Positions 19,146-47,200 of a stretch of 64,000 nucleotides of DNA are shown one piece after another. Source of the stretch: Mustelus asterias (Eukaryota); contig NW_027590443.1 of the NCBI RefSeq assembly GCF_964213995.1, forward strand, positions 1 to 64,000. Reading direction: 5' to 3'. Each line of letters begins with the position of its first letter. Within the stretch, counting starts at the first letter, position 1. The position numbers and the translations under genes are program-made. The notes below the pieces were generated by a model. The model saw only the letters and a list, made by a program, of their open reading frames with translations, was not told the DNA's origin and did no database searches.

Positions 19146-19725
19146 CTGCTTGATATTTAGACATGACAGAATTAATCCATGACACGAATATTATATGCAA
19201 GGGAAGTATCTCCTGAATTAATCAGGCATTTAGGTTGGATGATTATACACACTCAGATCAGCTGTACCCTACACAAATTCAGTGATTAAGTCAATTACGA
19301 TTAAATAAATTTTATTACAATTTTAAATGGGAGCTATTATTTCTGAATAGAGTAGGATACCCTCCTCACTGATTCAGCTCAAACATTATAAATAACTTTA
19401 TAAAAATTTCAACATTTAATTGAACTGAATAATTTCTTTCGAACACTACAGAATCTGAAGCATCTAAATTAGAAGCTTTTAGTTGAAACAAAATGACTAA
19501 TTTATGCAAGTCATGGAGCAATAGAAACTACTCCTAATTTGCAGGCTGCTATGCAATTTTTCCAGTAATCAAATTTGCCTTGTTAAACACTAAACACACT
19601 TCAGCAAAAGGCATGAACACCTGAAACTCAAGTACCAAAGGTAGACTGTGCCCATCTGCAGAACTGTGATCCAGTGGCAAGTTCTGCTGGGATGAAACAG
19701 GATGGGACCAGGATCCTTCCATGAC

Positions 19726-21183
19726 TTGAAGATACAAGCCAGCTGTTCCTGAAGTTGCTGGAAAGGGCTCAGTGTTGGTCAGCATTAACATAGGTGGTTG
19801 TGCGGCTAGTGAAACAGGCACACCTTGCAATGTTTCATAATGCATGCCATGCTTCTGCAAAACCTGTTGTTGCTCGCAATACAATGATAAACCGGAGTAT
19901 GGTGCCAGGAAACCCAAAGGTGGTGGTGACTGGAACTCTCTGGTCTCTGAGGAAGTCGACTGACCAGAGTCACTTGAACACTGTGGACTAAGATTCTGAG
20001 GAAGTTCTTCTGACACTGGCTGCCTGCTTCGCAGGTGGTCACCTGGTAGTACCACAGTATCAGAACTAAAATAAACCACCTGCTCTTCAGTCACCGGCTG
20101 AAGCCTGCTGTACACTCCAGTCCCTTGATTGTCCTCCAGGCTTAGATCCATTGAAGCCCGCCGATTTCTGTAAATTCTGTGAGTTAATGGTGGAACAGGA
20201 ATGTGGATATCATTACTTTCCACCTGTACTGCAGGAACTTGAAATTCAAAGATCGACCCTGTTCTGCTCTCATTTACCTGTGCAAGAATAGGAGGTGCAG
20301 AATGAGGGACAGTCAAATGCTGAACAGTTAGCATTGTATTAGCATTTTCAACAGGATTTCTTGCGAAAACACTTGTCAGCGCAGGTTCACTTTGAACATC
20401 TTTATCTTCCTTTAAGGGTAGAAACACTTTACCGGTCAGTGGAAATACTGCCTGTGGGTCTCCAACCTTCCAATGTTGTCTATGCTTCTGCATCATGTCC
20501 TGTGTCATTTGAAGATGAGAAGCTAAGTTTGAAATTTGAGCTGGTACTGTACGAGAAGTCACCTGCACCATTTGAGGCATTTGACCCATCACATTTTGTA
20601 TTGGGCAGGGCAAAAAATTCTGACCACTCTGGGATTCCTCACAACTCGAGGGCTGGGAATAATTCTGTTGCTGCTGTAGATTTACTTCTGTTGGAATTCG
20701 ATGCAAAGGAAATGTACAAGATGAAACGTCATTGTAAGTTACTGCCTCGTATGGATCCTGCGAAGTTTGCTGTAACTTCACACAACATGGATACATTGTT
20801 GGGTGACACAAAAGTGGAATTTCCTCAAACTGACCCGATCTTGACCTGTTTTCAAAAAAGGCATGGATTTGTTCTGCTTGCACCTGACCTTCACTGGCAG
20901 ATCTATGAGTAACCAAACCCATCATGGTTGCGTTTTCAGCATTCCAACTTGCAAAATCACCAGCAGAAGGAACATTTTGACCTATGGTCTTCAGTATTGG
21001 CTGAAAATGGTGAGTGTGGGCTTCCAGGATGGAAGTACTTTTGCGGCGTTGAGCATTAGCAACGTTCAGAGAAAAACTTGGTGGTGGTGAAAAAGAAAAT
21101 GGTCGTTCAGGAATAGATGGATATGAAACGGTCTCTGGTAGTGATGGAACTCCCCCACAAGGATGCACTAGAGATGGGGACTG
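19726..21183 (-). CDS. WNK1: WNK1 HSN2 neural exon (large Pro/Ser/Gln-rich cassette)
   Basis: Lies in the 547-aa ORF 19549-21192, with HSN2 motifs HPCGG, ERPFSFSPPP, QRRKSTSILEAHTHHFQP, VPHSAPPIL, RIYRNR, LQPVTEE and FQSPPP. Tandem acceptor AAG|CAG (start 21183 or 21180). The donor is uncertain: CAA|GTCATG at 19726 (homology-based) or CAG|GTGTTC at 19621, both phase 0. Confidence 0.88.
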
Positions 21184-22257
21184 CTTTAACATGAAGACAA
21201 AAATCTCAAATCAGAGTCGGGAAAATTAAAAATTCATCAGAAAATGAGCTTTTGTTTGAATTTCACTAATTACATTACAGAACAACAATAGCAAAAGAAT
21301 TCGACAAACACAGAAGACATTTAAAAGAACTGAATGAATGCATTAAACACATCCGTGGGCACAAGTTTTACATTAAAGTGCAGCATTTAAATTCCATCTG
21401 CACGTGAAGAGATTTATTTCTTGCAAGTTTACATCTAAAACGGAATGCCAAAAGTACTAGGAATGAATGATTTGATCCAGAAGTAAGTATTGCCGTACAG
21501 TAAGTAAGAGGACAGCCGATTGAATATTTTCACCGGACTTCAGAATGAAAAGACCCATCTGTCTAACAGTTCCGGAGGACTCCACAGAAAGGAATTAAAA
21601 TTTGTTGCTATTACATAGGTATATTCTGCCAACAAACTTTTGTATTCTGCCAGATGAATTATATGTATTTAGGCCAAAAACGTCAAAGTACTTATGGATT
21701 AGGCCAAAACTCTTTCAAATTAACCATTCAAAAAAAATAATTTCAGACACCATACTCTACTAAGTAGTTATAGCAGCCAATTATGTGAGGATAAAAGTTT
21801 TGAAAAAGAAAATGAATATTTTGTTCCAGTAGGAAGTAGTATTTCTCTAAATTTTATGATGACTTTGCTCGATATCACAGGTAAACTGGTAATGTGGTTA
21901 TAAGCAGCATTGCTTATTCCAAGTAGTAGATAATTCCTGAAGGATGTAGAATTGCTCCAGGTGGTTTGTATAAATGTGACAGTTAAATATAAGATTTTAC
22001 AACATTACATTTTCCCATTTTAAATTCTGCCCAAATGGTTGGATCATTTAATTAAATACATAAAATTGTGAATCAAGGTACATTTCAATTTCATCAAAGC
22101 TTGCCTACACATCCCACTTCCAAAAAGCAGAATTGGTAGCTAAGACTGAAAATACCAATATAACATCGAACTAAATCTCATCTTAATTGTAAAACTAAGT
22201 GCCCAGAACAGTTTGTATTTAATGACAACTTATCCTCATGAGTCACAGACAACATAC

Positions 22258-22509
22258 AGGGTTGAAACTAATACACGGAAGGCTGGAGCGGCGCAGTTTG
22301 CGTGGAGGAGCTGAGTGCATAGGGAGGATACTTTCCAATGCTTTTGACAGTTTTTCTGCAAAGGTTTCTTCAGGGATAGTCCAAACAGGTGGGAAGAGAG
22401 GTGCAGAGAGAACTGGTGGCGGAGTGAAGGATAGTCTAGGAATGTAGGGTGAATCGGGGATGGTGGAAAGGTGGGGAACACATACAGACATGCTACGACC
22501 TCGTTGAAG
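22258..22509 (-). CDS. WNK1: WNK1 alternative exon 8b (LQRGRSMSVCVP...PEETFAEKLSKALESILPMHSAPPRKLRRSSLPCISFNP)
   Basis: ttttag|CTT acceptor, CCT|GTATGT donor, 252 nt, phase 0-0; shares RGRSMSVCVP and PEETFAEKLSKALES.LPMHSA..RK.RRSSLP with mammalian exon 8b. Confidence 0.9.
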
Positions 22510-23754: not shown

Positions 23755-23924
23755 CCCTGTAGGCTGCTGAAGGCCACCAAGCTGCTGAGATGTTGACTGG
23801 GCATTTGGAGGCACCTGGCTTGATGAAATATGCTGTTCTTGAGCAGAACCATAAGAAACAGTTTGACTGCCATAGGAATCTGAAAATCCAGATGAACTCT
23901 GGCCACTGTCAAACGTGCCATCAG
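23755..23924 (-). CDS. WNK1: WNK1 exon 8 (SDGTFDSGQSSSGFSDSYGSQTVSYGSAQEQH...)
   Basis: T-tract with gtttag|CT acceptor, GGG|GTAAGT donor, 170 nt, phase 1 to 0; resembles human SDGTVDSGQGSS...TVSYGSQHEQ. Not in the supplied ORF track. Confidence 0.93.
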
Positions 23925-25930
23925 CTAAACAAAAAAAAATAATTAGTTTTTAAATCAAAATTTAACTTTGATAATATATCAAAAATATACACAATTTTAA
24001 TGGAATGGTGTTTTTGATTCTTTAAGCATTTCTTACTGATGAAACCCACAACAAATCTGGGTTAGACTGCAGCTTTGGATTTGAACTTCTGATTTGAAAC
24101 CACGACATCAAGGCATCAACAAAACCAAAAATCACCAGAAACAAATTACTGAAATCTAATCATATTCATCAACTAGCGTACTTTTCAATTTTAAAATGTT
24201 AGCATCCTTTCAGTACATAGATTCAATTTGGTTCAACGACAAACACCCATTCCGTTCTACTTGCCTACAACACTGGAGTTCAACTGTATTTGAAAACACA
24301 TTATTTCTCAGGTTTTGAACTGAAAACACTGGAAAAATATCGACAACATATTCAAATAAATTAACACTATGGTTCTTTTATGCTTAGAAGGTAATTTAGT
24401 AAAGCCACTAGGGCATTTGTAACACTTGTCAATGGTCTTCTTGCATCTCTGCCCTCACATACATTCAACTTTTGGTGGAGGGAATGGGAATCTAAGATGA
24501 CTGCAGTTGTAAACTACTAAGCATACCAAAGTAGATTATAAAGCTGCATTATTGTTCATGGGGTCACTTTGAAAGTTTAACCTTCTTACACAAGATAAAT
24601 TTGCTGTCACCTACAGGTGAAAAATAAAATCACCTTCTGAAGTATATTACAGACCAGCAAAAGATTTGCATATGGAACTTGTGTTTTTTTGCCTCTAAAT
24701 TGCTGTTGTGCCTATCTTTCCCTCTGCAAAATACAATGGAGAAGTCCAAACTGTCTTGTTTACATGTGAAAAAGCGGAGTATGGCAAATGTGTTATTTTA
24801 TTTAAGTACAAAGCCAAGATTTTGCATAGCAAAGATGCAACTTACAAATAGAAAAAAAATGAGGCAAGAGATAAAAGTTTGATACTTCTTCAAATTTCAG
24901 CAATACGAATTATACTCATTGCTGCTCTGAACGGATGCTGAATCCACCACCATGCAGTACATCAATCCTTCATGTCAAAAACAGGACTTTCAAAGTAATA
25001 GCTTCAAATAAGAAACTAAAGATAATCTAAGTCTGTGTTTCAAATACTTCAGACAGATTTACTTAAACCCAAACTCGAATCTTAAAAGATAAAATATGCA
25101 ACAATTTGTATGTCCTGCTACTCAACACAGGTTAAGTCGAGACAGTGATCAATTTGCTATGGATGCATTCTATAATGAAGCAAGCCAAGTAGCTTAGAGG
25201 TGGAGTGTGTTTCATATCTTTGAAAGAATCTGAGCTTCTTTCAGCCTGTTTTTCCAGGAAGGCATCTAGTCAGACAATGATGGGATGGAGTGAGCTACAG
25301 TCTATAGCACATTATAACATAGAACATAGAAAAGCTACAGCACAAACATAACACAAATGCCACCTCATAAATGGTATTGACTTCTTTGATAATATTACAA
25401 TGGCCTCAGAGGAGATCTGGTCACAGCAAAATTTAGGTATCGCTAAATTAAATTGTAATCAAATACAGAACCACAAAGCATTCGAGCAATCAATGAAATA
25501 CTTCAATCATCAGGATCCAGACTCAACAGTAAATCTTGCTGTGAATTTTAGGATAAACCTGTCTCATTAAAAAGCAAAGTGGCTTTATCAGATGTCTGTG
25601 ACACCCTAAAGCTATTCTGATGGACAGCTGTCCAGATATAATGAGGGGAACAATCTCCAAGCAGTACTCAGAGATAACTCCTAGAACTTGGTAAAGGATC
25701 AATGGGGATCAAAATTCTCAGCACCCATATTGTACAACATTATGTTGAATACTGCTGCATGCAACAATATTCATGAAAATTGTTTGAATGGTTCAATAGC
25801 TTTCGAAAAAATATCTACATTAGATTGGAAATAAGAACATAAGAACATAAGAAATAGGAGCAGGAGTAGGCCATCTAGCCCCTCGAGCCTGCCCCGCCAT
25901 TCAATAAGATCATGGCTGATCTGACGTGGA

Positions 25931-28900
25931 TCAGTACCACTTACCCGCCTGATCCCCATAACCCTTAATTCCCTTACCGATCAGGAATCCATCCATCTGC
26001 GCTTTAAACATATTCAGCGAGGTAGCCTCCACCACCTCAGTGGGCAGAGAATTCCAGAGATTCACGACCCTCTGGGAGAAGTTCCTCCTCAACTCTGTCT
26101 TAAACCGACCCCCCTTTATTTTGAGGCTGTGTCCTCTAGTTTTAACTTCCTTACTAAGTGGAAAGAATCTCTCCGCCTCCACCCTATCCAGCCCCCGCAT
26201 TATCTTATAAGTCTCCATAAGATCCCCCCTCATCCTTCTAAACTCCAACGAGTACAAACCCAATCTCCTCAGCCTCTCCTCATAATCCAAACCCCTCATC
26301 TCCGGTATCAACCTGGTGAACCTTCTCTGCACTCCCTCCAATGCCAATATATCCTTCCTCATATAAGGGGACCAATACTGCACACAGTATTCCAGCTGCG
26401 GCCTCACCAATGCCCTGTACAGGTGCATCAAGACATCCCTGCTTTTATATTCTATCCCCCTCGCAATATAGGCCAACATCCCATTTGCCTTCTTGATCAC
26501 CTGTTGTACCTGCAGACTGGGCTTTTGCGTCTCATGCACAAGGACCCCCAGGTCCCTTTGCACGGTAGCATGTTTTAATTTGTTTCCATTGAGATAGTAA
26601 TCCCATTTGTTATTATTTCCTCCAAAGTGTATAACCTCGCATTTCTCAACGTTATACTCCATTTGCCATATCCTCGCCCACTCACTCAGCCTGTCCAAAT
26701 CTCTCTGCAGATCTTCTCCGTCCTCCACACGATTCACTTTTCCACTTATCTTTGTGTCGTCTGCAAACTTCGTTACCCTACACTCCGTCCCCTCCTCCAG
26801 ATCATCTATATAAATGGTAAACAGTTGCGGCCCGAGTACCGATCCCTGCGGCACGCCACTAGTTACCTTCCTCCAACCGGAAAAACACCCATTTATTCCG
26901 ACTCTTTGCTTCCTGTCGGATAGCCAGTCCCCAATCCTCTTTAACACACTACCCCCAACTCCGTCTGCCCTAATCTTCTTCAGCAGCCTTTTATGGGGCA
27001 CCTTATCAAACGCCTTTTGGAAATCCAAAAACACCGCATCCACCGGTTCTCCTCCATCAACCGCCCTCGTCACATCTTCATAAAAATCCAACATGTTCGT
27101 CAAGCACGACTTTCCCCTCATGAATCCATGCTGCGTCTGATTGATCGAACCATTTCTATCCAGATGCCCTGCTATCTCCTCTTTAATAATGGATTCCAGC
27201 ATTTTCCCTACTACAGACGTTAAGCTGACCGGCCTATAGTTACCCGCCTTTTGTCTCCTTCCTTTTTTAAACAGCGGCGTAACATTAGCCGTTTTCCAAT
27301 CAACCGGCACTACCCCAGAATGCAACGCGTTTTGATAAATAATCACTAACGCATCCACTATTACCTCTGACATTTCTTTCAATACCCTGGGATGCATTCC
27401 ATCCGGACCCGGGGACTTGTCCACCTTCAGTCCCATTAGTCTACCCAGCACTGCCTCTCTGGTAACATTAATCGTATTAAGTATTTCTCCTGCTGCCAAC
27501 CCTCTATCGTTAATATTTGGCAAACTATTTGTGTCCTCCACCGTGAAGACCGACACAAAAAACGTATTTAAAGACTCAGCCATATCCTCATTTCCCACTA
27601 TTAACTCCCCCCTCTCGTCCTCCAAGGGTCCAGCATTCACTCTAGCCACTCTATTCCTTTTTATATATTTATAAAAACTTTTACTATCATTTTTTATATT
27701 AATTGCTAGCCTAGCTTCATAGTCTATCCTTCCTTTCTTTATCGCTTTCTTAGTCTCTCTTTGTTGTTTCTTAAATTTTTCCCAATCACTTGTTTCTCCA
27801 CTATTTTTGGCCACTCTGTACGCAGCTGTTTTTATTTTAATACTCTCCTTTATTTCCTTCGTTATCCACGGCTGGTTCTCCCTTTTCTTACAATCCTTGT
27901 TTTTTGCTGGAATATACTTTTGCTGAGAACTGAAAAGGATCTCCTTAAAAATCCTCCACTGTTCCTCAGCTATCCTACCTGCCAGCCTGCTCTCCCAGTC
28001 TACCTTAGCCAATTCATCCCTCATCCTATCATATTTCCCTCTGTTCAAACAGAGGACACTGGTTTGAGACCAAACTTTCTCCTCTTCCATCTGAATCAGA
28101 AATTCGACCATATTGTGGTCACTAGACCCAAGAGGGTCCTTCACAATAAGATCCTTAATTCTACCTACCTCGTTACACAATACCAGATCCAAAATAGCTC
28201 GTTCCCTCGTCGGTTCCGTAACATGCTGTTCAAGGAAACTATCCCGACAGCATTCTAAGAACTCTTCCTCCATTCCACCCTTACCGACTTGAGTCTGCCA
28301 GTCAATGTGCATGTTGAAGTCCCCCATGATTATTGCCGTTCCGTTTTTACACGCATCCCTTATCTGCTTGTTTATAGCCCTCCCTACCTCAACATTATTA
28401 TTTGGGGGCCTATATACCACACCTACTAGTGTCTTTCTCCCTCTACTATTCCTCATCTCTACCCATAATGATTCCACGTTTTGTTCCTCAGAGCCTATGT
28501 CATCCCTCAGTACTACCCTGATATTATCTCTTATTAATAGCGCGACCCCACCACCTTTTCCTTCCTGTCTATTCTTCCTAAACGCCTGATACCCCTGGAT
28601 ATTCATCTCCCAGTCCTGGTCACCTTTCAGCCACGTTTCTGTAATGGCCACTAGATCGTACCCACTTGTGCTGATTTGCACCATCAACTCATTCACCTTG
28701 TTCCGAATGCTTCGTGCATTCAGGCAAAGTGTCCTTATTCCAGCTTTTATCTGGACCCGCTTTGATGAGTCGCGAACACCGTCTCCCTCTACTCCCTTAT
28801 CTAAATTACCGCCTTCATTCACTTGCACCCTCTCCTCTACCATTAATTTTGTAATTCCCCTTACCCCTGCATCCTCCCCCCCATCAATTAGTTCCTTGAT

Positions 28901-28933
28901 CCTAGTCAACTCTTCTAGCTCCCCTCCCCCCAA
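25931..28933 (-). CDS. CR1 ORF2p: APE endonuclease and reverse transcriptase (about 1000 aa)
   Basis: LNARSIRNK, ITETWL, MGDFN, SDHN, KSPGPDG, DFQKAFDKVPH, GVPQGSVLGP, FADD; no stop over 3 kb. The listed start is TTG and the first in-frame ATG is 30 codons later. Confidence 0.96.
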   Translation of the reverse strand: MGGGELEELTRIKELIDGGEDAGVRGITKLMVEERVQVNEGGNLDKGVEGDGVRDSSKRVQIKAGIRTLCLNARSIRNKVNELMVQISTSGYDLVAITETWLKGDQDWEMNIQGYQAFRKNRQEGKGGGVALLIRDNIRVVLRDDIGSEEQNVESLWVEMRNSRGRKTLVGVVYRPPNNNVEVGRAINKQIRDACKNGTAIIMGDFNMHIDWQTQVGKGGMEEEFLECCRDSFLEQHVTEPTRERAILDLVLCNEVGRIKDLIVKDPLGSSDHNMVEFLIQMEEEKVWSQTSVLCLNRGKYDRMRDELAKVDWESRLAGRIAEEQWRIFKEILFSSQQKYIPAKNKDCKKRENQPWITKEIKESIKIKTAAYRVAKNSGETSDWEKFKKQQRETKKAIKKGRIDYEARLAINIKNDSKSFYKYIKRNRVARVNAGPLEDERGELIVGNEDMAESLNTFFVSVFTVEDTNSLPNINDRGLAAGEILNTINVTREAVLGRLMGLKVDKSPGPDGMHPRVLKEMSEVIVDALVIIYQNALHSGVVPVDWKTANVTPLFKKGRRQKAGNYRPVSLTSVVGKMLESIIKEEIAGHLDRNGSINQTQHGFMRGKSCLTNMLDFYEDVTRAVDGGEPVDAVFLDFQKAFDKVPHKRLLKKIRADGVGGSVLKRIGDWLSDRKQRVGINGCFSGWRKVTSGVPQGSVLGPQLFTIYIDDLEEGTECRVTKFADDTKISGKVNRVEDGEDLQRDLDRLSEWARIWQMEYNVEKCEVIHFGGNNNKWDYYLNGNKLKHATVQRDLGVLVHETQKPSLQVQQVIKKANGMLAYIARGIEYKSRDVLMHLYRALVRPQLEYCVQYWSPYMRKDILALEGVQRRFTRLIPEMRGLDYEERLRRLGLYSLEFRRMRGDLMETYKIMRGLDRVEAERFFPLSKEVKTRGHSLKIKGGRFKTELRRNFSQRVVNLWNSLPTEVVEATSLNMFKAQMDGFLIGKGIKGYGDQAGKWY

Positions 28934-28938
28934 CCTAT

Positions 28939-29877
28939 CTAGTTTAAATTCTCCCCAGTAGCCTTAGCCAACCTACCGGCCAGGATATTGGTCCCCGTGT
29001 GATTCAAGTTCCACCCGTTTTTTGTATACAGATCACCCCTGCCCCTAAAGAGGTCCCAATGGTCCAGGAACCTGAATCCCTGCCCCCTGCACCAGTCCCT
29101 CAGCCACACATTCATCCTCCACCTCACTCCATTCCTGCCCTCACCTTCCCGTGGCACAGGCAGTAATCCTGAGATTACTACCTTTGCTTTCCTCTTTCTC
29201 AGCTGTCTCCCTAATTCCCTGTACTCCCTTTTCATGACCCCTTCTCCCTTCCTACCCACATCAGCGGTACCAATATGTACCGCTACCTCAGGCTCCTCTC
29301 CCTCCCACCTCAGGATTTCCGGGACGCGACTAGCGACATCCTGGATCCCGGCCCCAGGGAGGCAGACCACCATGCGAGAATCCCGCCTACCTCCGCAGAA
29401 ACGCCTGTCTGTCCCCTTCACCATCGAGTCCCCGATTAATACCGCCTTCCTCCTCTTTTCCTTAGCCCTCTGAGTTACAGGGCTGGACTCCACTGCGGAG
29501 ACACGGCCACTGCTGCTTCCCCCAGGCGGGCTGTCCCCCCCAGCAGTACTCAAGCAGGAGTACTTGTTGTGCAGGGGCAAATCCACCGGGGTGCTCTCAA
29601 CCACCCTAGCCTTACCCTTCCTGGCCGTCACCCACTTGGCCTCTTCCCGTGGCCCTGGTGTGACCACCTGATGATAGCTCTTGTCTATCACCTCCTCATT
29701 CTCCCTCATCAGCCTAAGATCCTCGAGTTGTAGTTCCAGCTCCCTAACACGGTCTCTCAGGAACCGCAGCTCGACACACCCCTCACAGATGTGGATGTCC
29801 GGGAGGCCAGATGCCTCCAGGACCTCCCACATCCTACACTGGGAACAACACATTGGTTTCACACTCATACTGGACAC
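28939..29877 (-). CDS. CR1 ORF1p: zinc finger, coiled coil and SGNH esterase domain (312 aa)
   Basis: CSQC-x15-CEGC, heptad-like LRDRVRELELQLEDLR, esterase motifs IGDSMV, CLPGA and VHIGTAD. Confidence 0.93.
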   Translation of the reverse strand: MSSMSVKPMCCSQCRMWEVLEASGLPDIHICEGCVELRFLRDRVRELELQLEDLRLMRENEEVIDKSYHQVVTPGPREEAKWVTARKGKARVVESTPVDLPLHNKYSCLSTAGGDSPPGGSSSGRVSAVESSPVTQRAKEKRRKAVLIGDSMVKGTDRRFCGGRRDSRMVVCLPGAGIQDVASRVPEILRWEGEEPEVAVHIGTADVGRKGEGVMKREYRELGRQLRKRKAKVVISGLLPVPREGEGRNGVRWRMNVWLRDWCRGQGFRFLDHWDLFRGRGDLYTKNGWNLNHTGTNILAGRLAKATGENLN

Positions 29878-33557: not shown

Positions 33558-33897
33558 ATGTAACAGAGTTTCCAGCCGGCTGGTACTGCAATCTATGTTG
33601 ATCTGCTTCAGGCTCTTCAGGCTCAACTTGACTTGGTAGAGTTGCAGGAAGGGCAGAAGGAACTGCTGTGGTGGGTAACTGGGCAAGATGCCCTCCTCCA
33701 GGTTGAGAGATACTGGCTCCTTGCTGAGCTTTCTGCTGCTGCAGTTGATCATGCTTCTTCTGCTGCTCCTCCAGCTTCTCTTGTTTTTCCCGAACCAACT
33801 GCCGTTGCTCTCTTTTCCGTTTGATCAGAGACACACGATCTTTAATGGCTTTTGCCATAGTTTTGTGATCTCCTTCGGATACAAATCCAGATTCCAC
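33558..33897 (-). CDS. WNK1: WNK1 exon 7 (end of autoinhibitory domain, coiled coil, EPEEPEADQH acidic KLHL3 degron)
   Basis: atgcag|GTGGAA acceptor, ACAT|GTACGT donor, 340 nt, phase 0 to 1; VESGFVSEGDHKTMAKAIKDRV...EPEEPEADQHRLQYQ. Confidence 0.96.
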
Positions 33898-34203
33898 CTG
33901 CATGAAGTACAGTAACACACCAAGTCAAAAATGTATTACCACTTTTTCCATTCAGAGAAAATGGCGATCGAAATCCTTCAATATTGAAGATAAATTTGTG
34001 TTTGGTATGTTTCTCAGTGCAACTTACACACCTTGCACAGGAACGGTTTACAGGTAAATTATTTCACTCTGTTGGTGAGCAATGACAACTACATGGTTCA
34101 GTTTCTGAATTCACATTTTTTTTGTGTGAGCTGCAGTCACAAACATAGCTGGGACTCAAATACTAGCACATAAGTTAGGTTTAGTATTAACGCAATGACT
34201 TAC

Positions 34204-34423
34204 CATTTCCTGAGCCACATCCTCCGGAACATCTCTTTCCAAGTCAAACGAGAATTCTATGGCTTCATTATCCTTATACTTTCCTTTAAGTTTCTTAATG
34301 TCTTCAATTCGTAGCCAAAGCTTAATTGCAAGCTTTTCGCCATCATCTTCTTCTGCCAACTCTACACGAACACCAGTATCTTCTTGAAAGAAAGCATGAC
34401 TCAAAAGGTCCTTAATTGCATAC
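34204..34423 (-). CDS. WNK1: WNK1 exon 6 (kinase C-terminus and autoinhibitory PF2/CCT-like domain)
   Basis: gttgtag|G acceptor, ATG|GTAAGT donor, 220 nt, phase 2 to 0; [25 protein letters not shown]...DVAQEM. Confidence 0.97.
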
Positions 34424-35530
34424 CTACAACCAAATACAAATAATTAAACTCACTAAGCTAACAGTGATGTTGGGGAAAAGAAATTGCATCTATTTCAAGC
34501 GATCAGCAACATTATCAAGTAAATGCAAATCAGGTACAGCACAAACTGATGCAGAGTAAAACTCCCTCTGGTCACATATCTCATTTCCAACTATAAGAGT
34601 AGGAGGCTTTTCTGCACAGGTTACACTTATTTCCAATACCAGTGAGTCTGTAGTCTCTTACATGATATTGCCAAACAATAATAATGAACCATTCTGCACT
34701 CGGGTTCTCTGCCTATGAGATTGAGGTTACCCATTTGTATGGTGCATGATCCTAGAGCCAGCAGATGAAGATGTTCATTTCATGTCAGGAGTGGATTAAA
34801 ATTCACGACCTTGAGGTCAAAAGTTTTCCAAATAACTAACATTTAAAACTTTTCACAACTATCTTATACAAATTCTTATCTGGAATTTCTATTCCCCATC
34901 CAAACTTTTCTTCCTTTAGATCCTGAACCGAGCCAGTGACACCCACATCAATGAACAAATTCACTTCATGGCAATGTTCTCATTACTTTCAGCACCAATC
35001 TACTTCTCATCTGAGAAGAATGTCCTTTCTTCTCCCCAGACCTCTCAAGTGAACTACAATGCCCCAATTGAAAGTTACTTACTCTTGGATCTCTCTACTT
35101 GCATTTCCTGTTATCCATAACAATGTGGTTCAATTAACTTTTGATTTTACAACCTATCATGCCCCTTATTTTGAAAACAGCACCATAATTCGGTTTGGAA
35201 CCTCCCAAGATAAAGCACCAAGATTGCTCCAGACAGTGAATTCACTCTCATTGCTAACGGCAGCATCTACCTGTGCTGCATGCTATTCTGTTTGAATACA
35301 AAGATCACTGATGAACTGGCAAACAAATTTCACAACATAAAATTGAACTTGAATGAACTTCTTCTGAACCTAACTTCATGACATGTGAATTCCAGTGAAT
35401 TCACTGCTTCTGGAAAATAAATACACTCTCTCCAGGGCATTAACTTGTATTGCAATTGTAAAAAACATCACATGTGCAATTCAACTTTTAAATCCCACAT
35501 CACTTTAACAGCAGCTGTCAAGACATTCAC

Positions 35531-35619
35531 CGTTCATCTTTATTCTGGCGGATACATCCTTCGATTATTTCTTTAACTTCAGGGATTGCTACCTTGTCAA
35601 AGCTGGCTGGTTTCACCCC
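35531..35619 (-). CDS. WNK1: WNK1 exon 5 (end of kinase domain, [30 protein letters not shown])
   Basis: Polypyrimidine tract with ccttag|GGGGTGAAA acceptor; donor GAACG|GTGAAT; 89 nt, phase 0 to 2. Confidence 0.96.
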
Positions 35620-35709
35620 CTAAGGAATAAAAGGAAATAAAACATGAAACACAAAAATGAAAATCAGTAAAAAAGAGAGAAAATCTTTGAATGCACATCA
35701 GATCAAGTT

Positions 35710-36522
35710 TTCAGTATAACATGGATAAATATGAAGTTATTCACTTTGGAAGGAGAAACAAAATGGTAGAGTATTATTTAAATGGTGATAGAATGGGGAA
35801 TGTCGAGGTACAAAGGGACCTGGGTGTCCTAGGACACAGTACTGAAAACAAGCATGCAGGTACAGCAAGCAGTCAGGAAGGCAAATGGTTTGATGACCTT
35901 CACTGTAAGGGAACTTGAGTACAGGAGCAAGAATGTCTTACTGCAGTTGTACAGGACTTTAGAGAGACCACACCTGGAGTAGTGTTTGCAGTTTTGGTCT
36001 CCTCATCTGTGAAAGTATATACTTGCCAGAGAGGGAGTGCAACAAGGGTTCACCAGACTGATTCCTGGGATAGTAGGATTGTCATACGAGGAGAGATTAG
36101 GTCGACTGAGCCTGTATTCACTGGGATTCAGAAGAATGAGAGGGGATCTGGTTGAAATGCATCAAAGTCTGACAGGGTTGAACAGACTGGATTCAGGAAT
36201 GCTGTTTCCTTTGGCTGGGGTGTCTATAATAAGGGGTCACAGCCTCACGATATGGGATAGGGCATTTAGGACTGAGATGAGGAGAAACCTCTTCACTCAG
36301 AAGGTAGTGAACCTGTGAAATTCTCTACCACAGAAGGATGTGGAGGCCAAGTTATAATATATTTGGGGCAATAGATAGGTTTCTAGACTCTAAAGGTGTC
36401 AAGGAGTATGTGGCGAGCGCAGGAGTATGGTGTTGAAATTGAGGATCAGTCATGATCAAATTAAATAATGGAGCAGGCCTGAAGGGCCGAATGGTCTACT
36501 CGTGCTCCTATTTTCTGTTTGT
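35710..36522 (+). mobile_element. Decayed CR1 3' fragment, about 90 nt upstream of the exon 5 acceptor
   Basis: QYNMDKYEVIHFGRRN, FTRLIPG, RRMRGDL, RRNLFTQKVVNL. Confidence 0.88.
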
Positions 36523-37379
36523 TTCAATATACATCAGGTCAAGTTAGCATCTAAAAACATATATAGATTAATTCTGGATATAAACTTTCACTGCAACCCA
36601 AAATGTTAACTTAGCTTCCTTTCATCAATGTTGACTTTACCAGATGCATACTTTCAAGAATATTTTTTCTAAGAGAAAATAACCCATGTCCTTCAATTAG
36701 ATAACCACTACAAAACTACTTCCTTATTTTAATTCTGTATGCAAAATATTAACTTGTCGGGTAAGAATAACTTTGCCAAAAGTGGTAATATTTCTTGTTT
36801 GAAGTATATTTGAAGTTGCAATATTAAAAATGTAATAAATTTTAAAATTGGGCGTGTGCGTGCACGAGGAGGGTACACACGTGTGTGTTTGGGGGAATGC
36901 ACACTAGAATTGTACCAAAGGAGTGGAACGCAATTAGTGCGATTTCCTAGTTCAAAAATGTTAAGGATAAGTGAGACTACTTTGGGCCAGTTAACCTCAC
37001 ATTTGTAGTAGAAAATCTTCACCCGAGGGTAAACATGAGTGAACATTTGAAGATGCGGGTACACTGCGATTAGAATCAGTGCAATGTAACTCATAGTGCA
37101 AATTAGAGATAACGCAAAATGCATTAAGGGACTGGGCAGATAGGGGGCAAATGCTGTACAATGTTGATAAATGCGAAACTTCCTACTTGCAAAGGAATTG
37201 TATTGCCTTTTTCTTTCTGCCATATTACTTAATGAATTAGGATAGATACATTAATACGCATTAAGGTACAGAATTTAGTTTCTCTTCGAATGAAATACTA
37301 TTGCACAAATGGTTTTACAATACTTTTTTGTATGACTCGAGGATAGTAGTGTACAGCTTCACTGAAAAAGATGGTGGTA

Positions 37380-37760
37380 TACTCCAGGCAGGAATTCAAA
37401 ACCAGCTGAGGCTAATGGGCGAGAAGCTTATTCACTGTTGGCTCACCAAGGCTCCTGAGACAGCACTTTCAAAACCCACAACCACCAACATGTAAAAGGA
37501 CCAGGGCAGCAGATACAGGAGAACACCACTGCCTGGAAGTCCCTTCCAAGCCACACACCACCCTGATTTGGAAATACATCACCGTTCCTGGGTCAAAATC
37601 CTGGAACTCCCTCCTTAATAGCACTCTGCATGTGTTTACACCACATGGACTGCAGTGGTTCAAAAAGGCAGTTCACACCATCTTCAAGGGGAATTAGGGA
37701 TGGGCAATAAATGCTGGCCTAGCCAGTGAAGCCCACATCCCATGAATGAAGAGAAAAAAA
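37380..37760 (+). mobile_element. SINE 3' part (Deu-domain-like), A-rich end
   Basis: Similar to minus-strand copies at about 52200-52585 and 56875-57240 (caccaccctgatttggaaatacatcaccgttcc...gggcaataaatgctggcctagccagtgaagcccacatccc). Confidence 0.6.
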
Positions 37761-38655
37761 ATCACAGAAAATCTATCTTGCATTATATGGCCTTTGGTCT
37801 TAGAAGAGGTGCAATATATAGGTTCAGTGCACAAATGACCATTAACTGTAACGCTTGGTCAGGTCACAATGATGCTAACTGTGGCAATTTTAGAAGTTTC
37901 ATGGTAGGGTTTGCTCTATCAGGTTTGGGCTTAATGTTGTTCGAGAAGCAGCTAAACATTTCTGGATTGCATGATTGAAAAATGTTTATCAGCACAGCGA
38001 GACCCATCTCACCAATATTGGCTCCGGACTAGAGTTCCTCTCCATAATCTCAATCTGCTGCCTTTCCCTTGTCACTCATTTATGTTCATTTCCAAGTTTT
38101 TACCCAATTCCTTCTTAAATGCAGTTTGAACAGGGGAGCATCACAAACTGTCGAATTCTCTCCCCTCATGCCAAAGGATGGGCAAGCTTCCCAATCCTAG
38201 AACCCAACTCCCCAAATTCTTCTCCACCCTAGGACCCTCTTCAGTACCAGCTGGCCCCAAGTCTCTAATTCCTCTACTCTGCTGTGGCTTCCCACCCCAC
38301 AATTGACAACAAATCCCATGATCACACTACCGAATTTTATGATATGCTGGTCCCAGTCATCTACCCAGTTCCAGCATACTGATTTGCATACAAATAGAAT
38401 AGCCAAAAGAGCACAGAAGCGGCAAAGACTGACCCTACATTCACGAGATACTCACATACTTTTCCACCAGTGGATCACCGAATTGAGTAGGAGCAAGAAT
38501 TATTGCAAAAATAACTTTCTCTGGACTGTAGTCAGATACTACCATTTGCCTAAACACTCTCTGGTCTGAGAGGATATTTAGGCAAATGGTAATATCTGAC
38601 TACAGTCCCGGTTGGGTTCAGCCAACTGGGAATAGATATGGAGATGTTTCATTTC

Positions 38656-38973
38656 GGCGGCATGGTGGCACAGTGGTTAGCACTGCTGCCTCACTGCTCC
38701 AGAGACCTGGGTTCAATTCCCGGCTTTGGTCAGTGTGTGTGGAGTTTGCACATTCTCCCCATGTCTGTGTAGGTTTCCTCCATGTCCAAAGATGTGCAGG
38801 TTAGGTGCATTGGCCACGCTAAATTGCCCCCTAGTGTCCCAAGATGTGTATGTTAAAGGGATTAGCGGGGGTAAATATGTGGGATTACAGGGATAGGGCC
38901 TGGGTGGGATTGTTGTCAGTGCAGATTTAATGGGCCGAATGGCCTTTTTCTGCACTGTAGGGATTCTATGATT
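38656..38973 (+). mobile_element. HE1/V-SINE-type tRNA-derived SINE with CR1-derived tail
   Basis: A box ggtggcacagtggttagc, B box gggttcaattcc, central tgtgtggagtttgcacattctcccc, tail aatgggccgaatggcc...gattctatga. Confidence 0.85.
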
Positions 38974-40719
38974 TATAGACCTTGTTCTCAAATTGAAGAC
39001 GTCGCCCAATGTGTTACTGTCAGTGGAAACCCATAGATTCTATTTTCACTTTTCAACTGCTTTTATATGTGCATCTACTAATTCACTGTTCATCTCTAAA
39101 GTATGGTCACGTTGAGAGAGAAGAGTCATACTAAGCAATTAAAATTCTGTAACTGGAAGATCTCTCCACGCCCCACCCCCCTCCCAAAAAAACCCATGCC
39201 TGGGGGAACCATTTAATACTCCAATTTAAAATCAGAGACTTCATATATTTCCAACTCACTTAGCAGGCAAGTTACCCAGGAAGAGCTAGGTCTAAAACCA
39301 CAACCCTGACGCCACACCCTCCAACCTATGGACATCTTTATATTGTCTTTGAAGATAAATTGAAAGTTAATTTTCCTATATCAAAAGCAGATTTAAGAGA
39401 AAGCGCTTTTTATTTGGTGCCACAAAGATACAGCTGTAGACCCGTCCAAAACACCAGCACATGCACCAGAAAAACCGACCTTGTTGATTGTGAACATACA
39501 AGTACTTTTGGTGCATTTCTAATAAACAAGGCTTAGTGCATCATGACAAAATGCCTGCAGTTTCCAGTTCTGGAACCAAATGTCCATACGATAGTGTAGG
39601 ACATGGAATAATAATAAATTTACTTCCCATTTTGATGTCATACATCAAACATGCCCCTCAATATAATTATTTGACTCTATTATTTAGGTAATTCAAAACA
39701 TTTTGGGAAGCAAAGAATTAGAGTTGCTCAGATCACAAGTTTCACAACAGCACAGGTTAAGGAAGTGAAAAGGGTAGGGCCAAGCTCGATTGTATATATA
39801 TCATGTGTCTTTAGGAGGTTCCCAGACACACTAATGATGTGTTATCAGTGAGGTAATACACAAACGCAGCAGCCAATTTGCATACAGTAAGATGCCATAA
39901 GCAGTAACATGACAGTGACCATATAACCTGATTTCATAATATTGGTTGAGGGATAAATGTTAGATAGGTCTTCTTCGACCAGTGGAAAGGAGTCTTTTAC
40001 ACCCATGTGAGGAGGCACATTGGGTATCAGTTCAACCTGTAATCTGAAAGGGTTCCTCCAATTGTGCAGCATCCTTTCCTTCTCTATGTACAGTATACTT
40101 TGTCTGTATAGAGACCACAATACTTTTCACTGTATACTAGTGCAGGTGACAATAATAAATCTAATCAAAATCAAATAACTTTTCTCAGCACTCCATTTAA
40201 GTTATCAGCGCTACCGGTGTGACTGAAGAGATACGCACACAAAGCAGGGGCAAGTGAAGTGAGGTGCATTCCAATTGTATACAACATTACGTGGAGATGC
40301 CGGCATTGGACTGGGGTAAACACAGTGAGTAGTCTCTCAACACCAGGTTAAAGTCCAACAGGTTTATTTGGTAGCAAAAGCCACTAGCTTTCGGAGCGCG
40401 CTGCCCCTTTGTTCTGACGTTGAGGGATTTCTTACTGTGTATACAACATTGACAGCGAGAGGTGTGCGCACTGCACCCGAAGTATAAACATTTTTTTGTT
40501 TTTACCATTTGAAGTTGATGATCACTCTATTGATATATAAATGATTAAGAATTTTCTATAACTCATTGTGAAATATTCAACATGTATTTAATTTTATTCA
40601 TGGGGTCATAGCAATTGAACAAGCCAGATCAAACAGGTGCTGGAGTGTGTCGACCAGGGGAATTTCACAGTAACTTCATTGCAGTGTTAATGTAAGCCTT
40701 ACTTGTGATTAATAAACTT

Positions 40720-41310
40720 TAATTTCAGTCTTGCAGCCCACTGAGGTGAAGAAGGGCCACTCATGTGGCTCACTCACTGGCCTAGGTTTATCTCCCTCAA
40801 GTGCCAACCAATTTCTTTTTAAAATCATTGATCACCTCGGTTCCCATCCCCATTTAGGCAGTGGCCGCCATGTCATTACCATCTGCTGTGTAAAAAGAAA
40901 CTCTTCCTCAGAGCTACTTTCCCTAAACCTTTCATAATTTTGTATACCATTATCAAATCTCCCTTTCTTTGCCTCAAAGAGAACCCCAGCTTCTGCAACC
41001 TAACTTTTTACATAAAATCCCATTCTAAAACGAACCCACTCAAAAATCGACATATCCTTCTCAAATTTTGGAGACCAAAAATGGGCACAATACTCTAGTT
41101 GTGGCCTAACCAGACTAAGATTCAGCATAATTCTCTTGCTTTTGTACTCCATACCTCTATTTATGAAGACAAAATCCCATGTGCTTTGCTAACTACTCTC
41201 CCATTGTGCCTGCCACCTTCAAACATCAATCACATGAACCACAACTCCCTGTTAATGGCACTGTTTTAAACTGTGTACTAAGTCTATATTACCTCTACCT
41301 GTCCCTTCTA
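40720..41310 (-). mobile_element. Highly decayed CR1 3' fragment
   Basis: gaccaaaaatgggcacaatactctagttgtggcctaacc, the antisense of the RPQLEYCAHFW motif. Confidence 0.65.
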
Positions 41311-42282
41311 AATGTATGTGCATCTGGCAGAAATATGGACAAGTGAGCTTACAAATGGTAAACATAAACAAGGATAATGTTTTATAGACAAGTGTGCTCA
41401 ACTATAGGATCTAATATATTAATGACAAATACAAATATAATTTTTAATGCTACAAATGGTCTTATGCCCTTAAAAGAGCAACCTCTAGAATACAGCTGTA
41501 AAAAATTGATTACTCCATGTCGCAATTTACAACTTGTGATCTTGAATTAAATACACATGTAGTGCTAATTTCATTCAAGACATCCAATTGGATTCCTGTT
41601 TTCCTAATGGTGAAACTGGTCAAGTGTAGATTCTGATGGAAAGAAAAAAGTGTGCTTGGTTCAAACAAGACATTCGTTTCACGGTTTGCTCACATTCATC
41701 TTCAGGACAGCTAAGAGTTTGAGAGAATACATCGATTCCAGCTGGGTAAAGGCAACCTCAAAAGAAAGGGATCCCTCAAGTTCAAATTGCTATTCCTCTC
41801 CCAAATTTCAGCTCTGTCCACAAATTAAAAATGACTTTGGTTGAAATAGTGCCATTTCACAGCTCAGCAAAAGTTAATTAAAAGCTGGTTAGAATTTTTA
41901 AATGCTTGATTTTTTTTGACTGAATGCCTGCTATCAACCTCTATCAAAATTTGTCTCACCAAGTTCTTACTATAATTAAAGAAAATTCTTGCATGACCTC
42001 AACAAAGCAGTGTTTATTGCCTATTCTGACTTGCCCTCATGGCCTCAACTTTAAAACTGTCACTCCAGTTTTCAAATCCCTTCATGACCTGATCTCTCCC
42101 AGGCACCCGAGTGTGGTGACTAGGGGATTTTCACAGTAACTTCACTGCAGTGTTAATGTAAGCCTATTTGTGACACTAATAAATAGATATCTGTAATTTC
42201 CACCAGTATCATTACACCCCACTTCAGCCTCTCCAAGATATTTGCACTGCTCCAATGCTGGCCTCTTGGAACTTCTCGAATT

Positions 42283-42510
42283 GGTGGCATGGTGACACAG
42301 TGGTTAGCACTGCTGCCTCACAGCACCAGGAACCCGGATTCGATTCCTGGCATGGGTCACTGTCTATGTGGAGTCTGCACGTTCTCCCAGTGTCTGTGCT
42401 CCGGTTTTCTCCCACAGTCCAATAGACATGGTTAGGTGCATTGGCCATGCTAAACTCTCCCTCAGTGCTCCTGAACAGGTACCAGAGTGTGACGACTAGG
42501 GAATTTTCAG
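42283..42510 (+). mobile_element. V-SINE-type SINE with alternative (non-CR1) tail
   Basis: Same tRNA head and central domain as 38656; the tail reads gagtgtgacgactagggaattttcag. Confidence 0.8.
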
Positions 42511-44145
42511 TTAAACTTTTAATTGCTAACCACTGACAACTGTGGCATTTCCTCCCAAGTCACTAATATTGGGAAGTCCTTCTCTACATCCCTGAATCAC
42601 ACTTTCCTCCTTTTAGGCACTCCTTAAAGCCTACCTCTTTTCAAATCTTTTAGTCATCTGTCCGAATATCTCAAGTGCCTTGGTGTTAAATTTTGTTTGA
42701 TAGTATTCTGGTGAAGAGCCTATCCTAAAACCATACACAAGTACAAGTTTTTCTTAAGAGCCAACGACAACATAGGACTGAAGTCTCGTATAGCCAGATT
42801 AAGCAGTGGCAGCAAATCATTTCCTTTGGACATTAGAGTTGAGTTTTTATGCAAATCAGAAGTTTTCAAGGCATTTTTTCTTGTGCCATTCCAGAAATTA
42901 TCTTTTATGAATTTACTTGCACAACTCGTCACCATGAGTTCTGAACTCAATCTCTGGCTTGCTAACCCAGTACCACCATAATTGTTCTATCATACATGAA
43001 GTAATCATATTAACACAAGTCTGCAAAAGCTTTTGAACAGAATGGCAACGGTACTGGCGAAAATGTCTGTTGGAATTTCTAAACTGCACTGTCCACAGAA
43101 ATACAAATCAACCCAGTGTGCCTGAATCAAATATCACTAGAGTTAATCATATCTCCAACACAGTTTTCCACAACATACTAGTTGAGCCAAAACAATGCAA
43201 AACCTCAACACTCAAACAAAAATGAAGAAAGCAAATAAATCTACAAGTTAATCACAATTCTTCAGATTATTTTTAGACAGGTATCAATAGAGCTACTGCC
43301 TTTTAAAATGGGCTTAACTGAATTCAGACCAAATAAATTTTACTATCAAAAACAAAAAATTTGGAACTTAAAGCAAAAGTTAACTAAAGGTTGAGTAAAC
43401 TTTTTTGACTGATGGCTTAGGATGGGCAATGCTGGCTGAGCCAGTGACACTCATCCTGTAAATGAATAAAGAAAACTTCCGCTACATCAAAATTTGTCTC
43501 ACCAAGTATTTATTGGACAAATAAAATTGTTCCATGACCCCAACAAAGCAGTCTTTATTACACATTCCAAGTTGCCCTCATGTGGCCTCAACTTTGAAAT
43601 TCTTACCCCAGTTTTCAAATCCCTCCATGGCCTGATCCCTCCTTATCTCTAATCTCCTCCAGTCGCACAACACTCCACAGACTGAGTTTCAAATTTGCAG
43701 TTCGGAAATACAGCAAGAAAATATTTATCATGCAAAACAAGACTACCTCAAATGCACATTGATTACCCTCCAAATGACAATTCCTTTTCTGTCATCTGTA
43801 ACATGTTTGGAGTAAAAGTAGACCTAATAAACTCATCAATATCACAAAATCTGGGGTTTTTCCTCAAATATTTGATCGTCAGCATAGTTGACAGAGTAGG
43901 AGTTTCAGATTAAAAATAAAAGAGGCTTTTAAACAATACGCCCACTCTCCATTTACCATATAAAGTTTTTCTCTGAAAATTATGAACCAAATGAAAGTTT
44001 GAACTCTCAAACTGCCTTGCAAAGTAAAATTAATTTTTAGCTTTGCATAGTTATTAGGCATCATCTAACATGTCAGTGAACAGTGACTTTTAAACCACAT
44101 TTATAGGAAAGCGAATCAAACTTCATAAATGTAACAATCACTCAC

Positions 44146-44244
44146 CTCGTTAACATGGACATGATCATTTTGATGTGAGCAGCAACAGCAGTGGGAATTA
44201 ATAATAAAAAACACTGGGGATCTCTCTCTATTCTCAGAATCCAT
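44146..44244 (-). CDS. WNK1: WNK1 exon 4a homologue (alternative first coding exon of kinase-deficient KS-WNK1; cysteine-rich hydrophobic motif)
   Basis: ATG at 44244 (context CAGATGG) opens 33 codons, MDSENRERSPVFFIINSHCCCCSHQNDHVHVNE, ending at a consensus donor GAG|GTGAGT in phase 0, matching phase-0 exon 5. Human exon 4a as recalled is MDIKKKDFCSVFVIINSHCCCCPQKDCINE. It lies upstream of exon 5 in intron 4, as in mammals. Confidence 0.92.
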
Positions 44245-47200
44245 CTGAGAACTTGCAATAAAGTCTAACGGGTCACAGAGGGCATTTTGGCAAAAGAGAC
44301 TTGCCAATATGTGGCAAATCAATGGATACTGGTTTCTACTTTGCTAATATTAGAGTTCTTTATGCCCCCTACACTAGTAAAAGAATTTTAAAATTTCTCT
44401 CATCAATGCACCTCCTTTTCTTTGTAACAGCAAGGAGAACATATCCACTGTTTCTCCAGCCAAGTGCCTAGTACAATCCTCTACACCTCCTTTAAGGTTG
44501 TTCAGTCACATGAACAGATTTCATTAGCAACTGAAATGCGTCATACCTCCTGCAGGGTATTTCTGTCCTGTAGTCTTTCAACTATATTTTCACAAAGGCA
44601 GGAACAAATTTTGAGCAGCTTCTTCAATAAAAGGTTCCCTTAAATGCATAAGGCCTTAATTTTTGAAAAACCTAGAAGGCAAATGATGATCTATAATTTC
44701 TCTCCACGACAGAGGAAAGTTATTAAAATAATTCTCAGAAGGGTTTTTGTGATTGGCCCCTTATTCAGTTCAAACAAACAAATTTGCAACTCCATTATCC
44801 TTGAATAGTTGTACAGCAATCATTTTAATCTCAATTATTCCTGTACATATTTGTTCCTTCTAATGATTGTAGTAAATAAAGACATCTGGCCAAAATAAAT
44901 GAATTCAGTAGAAAAATGCTTCATTTCATGTGACAAATTGTGATAAGAACATTTTTTTAAAAGTGAAAAAAAATTATACCTCAATCTAACCTTCCAGGTT
45001 TAACATGAGACGTGACAAAGCGTGTGTAATTATTTTCCTCTCCTATTCCCAAAATTACTTAATTCTTGGGTATTGCTCCATGAACACTTCAGCGTAAATG
45101 TCTGGTATCTCAATCAAGTGATCACTATGTGCATTTAAGACAAGGTGCAAGGATCAACAGGGAATTGAAATATATAGACCCTGATTTGATTCTCACCCAG
45201 TGTCTACACGCAAGGTCCAGCAAGCATCACAGACTACGTATCCGTAATTGGTTCTGAACTGGGATAATCATTATGGCACCAAAGGATTCCATGAAGCTAT
45301 TTGGCCCAGTCAATCCCATTTCTCCATTCAATCCCAGTAGCTTTGCAAGTTATTTCCCTCATGTATTGAAGTCTTGACCCCAAGAGCATCCGGATATGTA
45401 TCAAAGGCAACAGTCATCGATCACAGCAATAAGACAACATTTAAAGTTGACTAAATGTGGTTTAAGTGGCACTTCCAATCTTCAACAACAATTTTCTTAC
45501 TCCTTTTCAGCTGGCCATTGTTTGGAAAGATCATTAATTGCAGTGCTAGCCAGGATACAAGTATCCACTAGCACTTTAACCAGTAGATTGACAGGTTTCT
45601 CAGCCCCATCTCTTAATAACTACCTTTCATTTCTTTGTTGTTGCATTCATTTAGTCTGAAATAGCATGGATTGGAAATTAGATCAAATTTCCCTTAATCA
45701 GTCATTTTGCAGTGTTGCCACAAGACTTTTTTTTTTAAAAGCGCATTGGCATTAATATGTTATAACTGAAATTATATGCAAGCCTTGCATCTTTTTTGAA
45801 TTACGCAGAAGCACGTAGTTCAATGGCAACATCTCAGCCAAAGTTGACGTGCCAAACAATCAGCACCCCTTTTGTCCTGTAGTATAAATTGTTGTGATCA
45901 TTTGAAATTTGGCATTCTTCGATTTGTCCTGAGTGCAAGATGAAAAGCCTCAGTATGTATCTTTTTTCAACAATATTCAAGTTCAGTACTACCAAGTGAC
46001 TCAAATTCTATTTAAACCAATAACTTGATATAGTACTTGCATTTATGCAACTTCAGACAACTCAATTACTTTCACCATCAGATATATTTTGTATTTTGCG
46101 CTGGAAACGCACCTTTCGTGTACTTCACAGATATAGCCAGGCATTTATGACAATGTACTGGATGTGACTTCTGAATTAAACAGGACACTATGACTGCACA
46201 CTGCTGGGATCACACTGAACAAGCAGCTAATATGGGGAAAAATAGAAGCCAAGATATGCAGTTTCTGACAGGAGCCAAACAAGATGCCCTCAGTCTGAAA
46301 GTATGAACTGATTTTGTTTTATTTCAATGCGATTTATGGGAGGTGATTTTCCACATCTCTGTAAATGGTGGGGTGAAGAGAGCAAAAATATGGACAAGAC
46401 CAGAGTTGGAGTAATACAGTACTTCGGGGGTTGCAAAGGTACAGAATGTTAGGGAGGGAGGGGAAAAGACAAGAAAGAATTTAAGCACAAGAATGTAAAT
46501 TGTAAAATGGGAAGAGTGCTTCAGAAGCAAAAAACCGAGAACTGATTTAGAGTACATGCAGATCTTGCTTTATTTAACACAAGGTTTGCATTGTTATGAT
46601 GTACTGGTCACCTTCACGAAAGCATGACATCTTTCCAAAGGTCAAAACTTCAGAGTAATGGTTGTAACGTCACTGTAATTTGTTATTCCAACAGGTTGTT
46701 TGGAGAAAAAAAAACAATTCAAAACAGCTCTTTTTACCCTCTGGCCTGTTGCTTACCATTGAAGCATTTCACTTTATTGCTATAAAACACTGCCTCATGA
46801 CACAGAACTGTACCCACCTGAAGCTATTGCTGAGAAAATGCAAAAATCTCACGTAAAATAGCCCCTTTAGGATCAAAGTCATTAAAGTTATAACCCAACA
46901 GTTCACTCAAACGTGATTTTGCACTGAAACAGCATTTGACAAATAACCCATTTGAACTTCAAAACCTTGGTTGAAAGCTAAATCAATAAGTCAAATGCAC
47001 AACACAAAACTAACTACAATTAGCAATTGATCTTGTATCCAAATCTCAGTGCACAAAAAGGAATTTTCCAGTCCATATGGAAGTTTTTCCACTAGTGTTA
47101 AACTCTGCTGAAACTATTAAATGGTACTGAAAACCCCCCAATAATAATAGTCAAGAATATTTTTTGAAAAAGACAAGAGAACAAACTGGCTTTCAAAAAG

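Follow-up and report, generated by a model that had tools for sequence, protein, structure and literature searches.

Intron 4 of WNK1 in the carcharhiniform shark Mustelus asterias contains a short open frame that is, with very little doubt, the shark ortholog of exon 4a, the exon that opens the kinase-dead isoform KS-WNK1 in mammals, and the origin of exon 4a then falls at or before the jawed-vertebrate ancestor. Shark exon 4a contradicts both the date that has repeatedly been published for this exon and the adaptive reading placed on it. Several lines of evidence can be set out. First, the intron, the phase and a Met-to-Met match to mammalian exon 4a (E 2–6e-6) bear out the identity that a first-pass annotation had given the exon from its letters. 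Secondly, the conservation in other chondrichthyans on which that proposal depended is seen in RefSeq models of four sharks and rays, which the exon heads with 31–33 of 33 residues identical. Thirdly, the locus falls among the galeomorph sharks in a tree and corresponds to a named Mustelus asterias WNK1 record, which agrees with the earlier view that the DNA is from an elasmobranch and excludes a sarcopterygian source.

Exon 4a and the WNK1 locus

The window, the whole stretch of DNA analysed, is 64,000 nt long and forms bases 1-64000 of a contig 338,061 nt in length, and the kinase exons were sought in the following 200 kb. The features of the window are collected in Table 1. The exon 4a observation at 44244-44146 is real and its anatomy is confirmed. 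The minus-strand translation reads MDSENRERSPVFFIINSHCCCCSHQNDHVHVNE, 33 codons with no stop; the 3′ boundary is GAG/GTGAGT, and an AG stands immediately 5′ of the ATG. The exon is hosted by a 29,433-nt WNK1 intron 4, in which it lies 20.8 kb downstream of exon 4 (whose end is at contig position 65053), and both ends of the intron that separates it from exon 5 are phase 0, with exon 4a in frame with exon 5. The latter starts at 35619 behind a pyrimidine-rich AG acceptor and is identical to solved WNK1 kinase chains at 29 of 29 residues (E 1e-13), the match to WNK3 being weaker (E 4e-10). Exon 4a is single-copy in the genome, where the three further matches have E values of only 1.9–3.9. No Pfam family was found for its peptide, and the sole match among 1.84 billion protein representatives (P0409) was rejected as a tandem-repeat frame aligning in 17 stretches.

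Table 1. Features of the WNK1 locus within the window
Feature	Position	Strand	Remark
WNK1 exon 4a, coding part	44146..44244	minus	33 codons, ATG to phase-0 donor
Exon 4a splice donor GTGAGT	44140..44145	minus	unchanged in contigs of organisms D and E
CRH (cysteine-rich hydrophobic) motif	44179..44214	minus	residues 11-22, VFFIINSHCCCC
Short-transcript 5′ UTR and intronic promoter (presumed)	44245..44560	minus	inferred from position only
Intron, exon 4a to exon 5	35620..44145	minus	8,526 nt, 3′ part of WNK1 intron 4
WNK1 exon 5	35530..35619	minus	C-terminal remnant of kinase domain; tblastn range
WNK1 exon 6	34201..34431	minus	approximate tblastn range
WNK1 exon 7	33559..33897	minus	acidic KLHL3 degron EPEEPEADQH near 33615
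WNK1 exon 8	23755..23925	minus	tblastn range
Large alternative WNK1 exon	19621..21183	minus	tblastn range

The kinase exons 1–4 are further along the contig, outside the window, at about 94.7–93.9, 71.9–71.6, 66.5–66.3 and 65.2–65.05 kb. The RefSeq model of the locus, XP_078060994.1, is a partial protein of Mustelus asterias that maps in 11 pieces on the contig; its residues 449 and 450 are the last of exon 4 and the first of exon 5, and exon 4a is omitted. The large alternative exon, which we take to be of the HSN2 type, is 65–78% identical in four other elasmobranchs, and it matches XP_078060994.1 at 99% identity, followed by whale shark WNK1 (70%) and mammals (32–39%). A tree built from 19 WNK1 N-terminal regions places the locus in a galeomorph group (98/98), nearest to Scyliorhinus with 96% identity. 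The acidic KLHL3 degron of exon 7 is a motif described previously (PMC8174809).

Several other features of the locus and its surroundings were observed. An open frame on the minus strand at 22246-22509 resembles the segment preceding the large alternative exon in human (P0112) and gar (P0100), and is likely a second unannotated exon, absent from the RefSeq model of the locus. Between exons 7 and 8, at 25934-28963 on the minus strand, there is an uninterrupted LINE frame of 1010 codons in the sense of the gene, with endonuclease and reverse transcriptase domains. Near the contig end, at 703-5627, lies a 19-nt purine-rich minisatellite of 259 copies with 99% matches, which likely broke the assembly here, so that WNK1 is partial and goes under the name 'uncharacterized protein'. 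Upstream of WNK1, identical translated stretches 13.9 kb apart (contig C411, near 150 and 164 kb) point to a duplication, either a recent tandem one or one introduced in assembly. Finally, models from gar (P0124), Amblyraja (P0331) and tarsier (P0136) begin at a Met within exon 4 and describe a further kind of kinase-truncated WNK1, distinct from KS-WNK1; these may be annotation artefacts or reflect another internal start.

Exon 4a in mammals and in cartilaginous fish

The mammalian KS-type proteins retrieved (tarsier P0119, pangolin P0138, P0144) each have exon 5 preceded by an exon 4a of 30 residues, and the exon 4a peptides of P0119 and P0138 were used as queries against 264 kb. The best match of both is the shark exon (E 5.6e-6 and 2.2e-6, respectively), with runners-up at 0.077 and 0.056. 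The alignment is ungapped, runs Met-to-Met and has 12 of 26 residues identical; if a three-residue gap is allowed, the last three residues before the junction match mammalian exon 4a too. Local scores against intron 4 are 75 and 78 and become 40 and 39 when the exon is masked, and none of 200 shuffled queries per peptide attained the real score. Intron 4 of three paralogs (23.7, 2.3 and 5.5 kb), which we label WNK2-like, WNK3-like and WNK4-like by their exon 5 sequences, gave best scores of 25–38, equivalent to background, and on these alignments exon 4a looks specific to WNK1.

The shark exon has in common with mammalian KS-WNK1 (tarsier XP_021571078.1, pangolin XP_073080026.1; PMC6014176, PMC8174809, PMC12321387) its position in intron 4, its ATG and the phase-0 join to exon 5. 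Within the peptide the likeness extends over five hydrophobic residues (11–15), NSH and four cysteines (16–22) and the last three residues, and downstream the acidic degron and the four RFxV motifs of four shark and ray models are as in mammalian KS forms. The shark exon differs in its 33 residues compared to 30 in mammals, in residues 3–10, and in having four cysteines rather than six, with a Ser at 9 and the distal Cys lost in a His-rich stretch. It also has Phe at 13 where mammals have Val, such that residues 11–15 are V-F-F-I-I in shark and V-F-V-I-I in the mammalian motif (PMC8174809 section 24). The junction with exon 5 had been described as the same as in mammals; this is right for the last three residues. 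The mammalian junction retrieved from tarsier and pangolin ends in CVNE, and the CINE form that had been given was not among the sequences retrieved.

The number of cysteines is constant within each group, with four in all five elasmobranch exon 4a peptides and six in both mammalian ones. The four inner cysteines are present in shark and the two outer ones absent, and we count the latter as accessory to exon 4a and not as defining it. Mammalian KS-WNK1 without the outer two cysteines is reported to be unchanged in localisation (PMC6014176) and only partly impaired in NCC activation (PMC8174809 section 23), although the same section paraphrases the former result as WNK bodies being partly affected. 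On these results the four-cysteine form of sharks is predicted to work, perhaps more weakly. Shark exon 4a is a natural four-cysteine variant resembling a published mutant, and it marks the likely minimal motif.

Conservation was followed through 194 listed records of chondrichthyan WNK1 proteins. These come from 22 named species, with three further records besides; three clusters are represented by 15 of 16, 15 of 26 and 15 of 38 members, and the set draws on some, not all, of the clusters. Exon 5 is contained in 192 of the listed records, preceded by exon 4 in 188 and by exon 4a, from Met 1, in four. At least four of the 194 listed records, from at least four of the 22 species, are therefore KS-type models, in each of which the exon 4a peptide is joined to exon 5: XP_067906891.1 of Heterodontus francisci (33/33 residues identical), XP_067855819.1 of Heptranchias perlo (32/33), XP_072123880.1 of Mobula birostris (31/33) and XP_072915352.1 of Hemitrygon akajei (31/33). 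The four hosts, respectively a horn shark, a sevengill shark, a manta and a stingray, represent the galeomorph and squalomorph sharks as well as the rays, and their models have the junction predicted for Mustelus asterias. The CRH motif is identical in all four, the rest of the protein equals the compared long isoform in three of the four, HRDLK is absent and the acidic degron kept. Four RFxV motifs are present in each, a count that refers to these four models, as the 3′ half of Mustelus WNK1 lies off the contig. The models are titled only 'WNK1-like isoform X7/X8/X9/X12', and none is marked kidney-specific. The expectation that gene predictors would miss the exon thus holds for the Mustelus model, which skips it, but not for these four species.

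Among the records listed, a KS-type record is absent in 18 of the 22 named species, which counts against the explanation we prefer. For example, there are none among 13 records of Scyliorhinus torazame, 11 of Stegostoma, seven of Rhincodon and 11 of Callorhinchus, although an exon may well be present where its model is lacking. Outside the cartilaginous fish, exon 4a was found in none of 14 gar protein models.

The extent of conservation is clearly seen from comparison with other exons. Between shark and ray, exon 4a is 94% identical, compared to 80–81% for exon 1, 82–84% for exon 7, 75–77% for exon 8 and 65–67% for the large alternative exon; the kinase exons 2–6 are at 99–100%. At the DNA level, exon 4a in the contigs of organisms D and E has five substitutions, four of them synonymous, with no indels and with ATG and GT intact, and the flanks have four indels. 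The synonymous excess has a p of 0.04, the reference being a 32/99 synonymous share of transitions. The exon does not stand out clearly by a low substitution density (3/99 versus 28/640 in E, 2/99 versus 7/568 in D). Purifying selection on exon 4a is shown. Upstream of the exon, 121 nt at 44437-44557 are substitution-free in two other organisms, with a permutation p of 0.10 in organism E; at this value the run was rejected as a promoter element and is a candidate at most.

Predicted product, probable site of action and alternative readings

In mammals a promoter in intron 4 swaps exons 1–4 for exon 4a and the product has no catalytic site (PMC6014176, PMC12321387). The CRH motif is needed for WNK bodies, and KS-WNK1, whose expression is closely confined to the distal tubule (PMC6014176), amplifies the response of NCC to potassium (PMC6014176, PMC12321387). 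In the shark gene the catalytic motifs are encoded in exons 1–3, and since they lie within exons 1–4, any product that joins exon 4a to exon 5 is without them. We consider it probable that shark exon 4a gives rise to a kinase-dead KS-WNK1 that acts as a scaffold in the distal nephron. By analogy with mammals, an intronic promoter would drive a short transcript joining exon 4a to exon 5, in which exon 4a would replace exons 1–4; the protein would be restricted to the late distal tubule, would condense by means of its hydrophobic block and inner cysteines, and would be turned over by KLHL3 via the retained acidic motif. It would cluster WNK4 and SPAK/OSR1 and so adjust the activity of NCC, the NaCl cotransporter, in the distal nephron. 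Of the parts of this proposal, a distal-nephron bias of the shark form is somewhat favoured by the mammalian parallel, and on the same analogy the balance tips modestly towards its making condensates.

The genome contains a WNK4-like gene, and it encodes regulatory N-termini of the NCC, NKCC1 and NKCC2-like types. NCC mRNA is found at the transition from late distal to collecting tubule in stingray and houndshark (PMC9396271; houndshark as cited there), and elasmobranchs thus possess an NCC-positive distal segment. In fresh water, ncc rises about 10-fold in the bull shark (as cited in PMC9396271), whereas renal ncc goes down in the stingray (PMC9396271); as these responses are opposite, the physiological role in sharks need not match that in mammals. 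The same kinase-dead first-exon scaffold could instead act mainly in an epithelium that secretes salt, either the rectal gland or the gill, and there gate NKCC1 and not renal NCC. NKCC1 is present in the genome, the rectal gland of sharks is a classic case of NKCC phosphorylation under chloride control (PMC11556937), and renal ncc is low in the seawater stingray (14–32 TPM, versus nkcc2 at about 300–500; PMC9396271). However, the distal-tubule restriction of the mammalian isoform and the NCC-positive segment of elasmobranchs both speak against it, and we regard this placement as unlikely.

That exon 4a is used as an alternative first exon is a reading in which we have high confidence. The join from exon 4a to exon 5, starting at this Met, is predicted by the RefSeq gene models of the four other species. 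None of the 10 sequencing runs listed for 44100-44800 is recorded as RNA. Six are guessed to be RNA, with small shares (0.04–0.07), and two of these (X2, X6) gave no contigs over 44050-44850, where a filter can hide contigs. In runs X9 and X10, whose kind is not recorded, the sequence continues through the exon 4a donor into the intron, like DNA. The four models might be projected from homology. Such RefSeq models usually rest on RNA alignments, and the patchy distribution of KS-type models among species would fit tissue-restricted RNA better than blanket projection. Two observations count against a first exon, namely that the locus's own RefSeq model is without exon 4a and that the AG abutting the ATG could act as an acceptor. 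With this acceptor the exon could be a 99-nt in-frame cassette between exons 4 and 5, which would insert 33 residues in the kinase C-lobe of full-length WNK1; both of its ends are phase 0, its length is a multiple of three, and a rhinoceros 'hypothetical protein' (P0034) has an extended 4a between exon 4 and exon 5. Yet exon 4 is followed by exon 4a in none of the 192 listed chondrichthyan records with exon 5, all four records that have exon 4a begin at its Met, as do the mammalian forms at the equivalent Met, and the pyrimidine tract before exon 4a is visibly poorer than those before exons 5 and 6. A cassette is accordingly very improbable.

It is no easier to credit that exon 4a is a silent homologous relic or a conserved non-coding element, with the four models projected from mammalian proteins. 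Most chondrichthyan species among the records listed are indeed without a KS-type model. Against this, 31–33 of 33 residues are kept from shark to ray, above the neighbouring non-kinase coding exons, and four of the five DNA changes are synonymous; pure projection should moreover appear in most species rather than in four of 22. The date of origin would stand even for a relic. Chance or convergence, whereby an unrelated cysteine-rich frame has arisen in a long intron, is the most implausible reading, since the match, although it covers only 12 of 26 residues and four of these are the cysteine run, shares intron, strand, phase, Met-to-Met register and final residues at E 2–6e-6 with no equal in 200 shuffles, and intron 4 of the three paralogs holds nothing similar.

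Age of exon 4a and the published date

Exon 4a is reported to have 'emerged in coelacanths', with coelacanth as its earliest occurrence and a tie to the move onto land (PMC6014176); the coelacanth-to-human range is repeated in PMC8174809, and a 2025 paper sets its emergence at the water-to-land transition (PMC12321387). Two of these three papers take the date as a kidney adaptation to land. The first-pass annotation had mentioned a coelacanth and water-to-land claim, and this agrees with what the three papers state. With the exon in elasmobranchs as well as in lobe-finned vertebrates, parsimony dates it no later than the last ancestor shared by all living jawed vertebrates, the date that had been suggested for it on the supposition of an elasmobranch source. 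Exon 4a thus likely arose in the jawed-vertebrate ancestor and not at the move to land.

In the article text searched, mainly from papers outside subscription, we found no report of exon 4a in cartilaginous fish; where papers on KS-WNK1 mention sharks, they do so with regard to NKCC or NCC. Term searches of the reviews PMC11381001, PMC13686953, PMC11472293, PMC11556937 and PMC7606576 turned up no statement on a chondrichthyan exon 4a. The proviso that such an isoform might already be documented is therefore borne out in part, in that unlabelled RefSeq models exist in four species, whereas a literature report was not found. The type of exon and its mechanism were already known, and the sequence stands in RefSeq for these species without a label.

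ENaC is present in elephant shark and ropefish and not in other ray-finned fish (PMC8791634), and this pattern is a possible parallel should exon 4a prove absent in ray-finned fish. A broader reading, which we put forward tentatively and hold to be rather doubtful, is that the scaffold was an invention of the first jawed vertebrates, that its four-cysteine form serves marine sharks in an epithelium that secretes salt or retains urea (rectal gland, gill or late distal tubule), for a purpose other than saving potassium on land, and that most ray-finned fish later lost it; this loss would parallel their loss of ENaC.

The identity of 94–100% across sharks and rays shifts the origin of exon 4a to the jawed-vertebrate ancestor and undoes the argument from adaptation to land. 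It also opens a question that can be answered with public RNA data, that of the role of a kinase-dead scaffold in marine fish.
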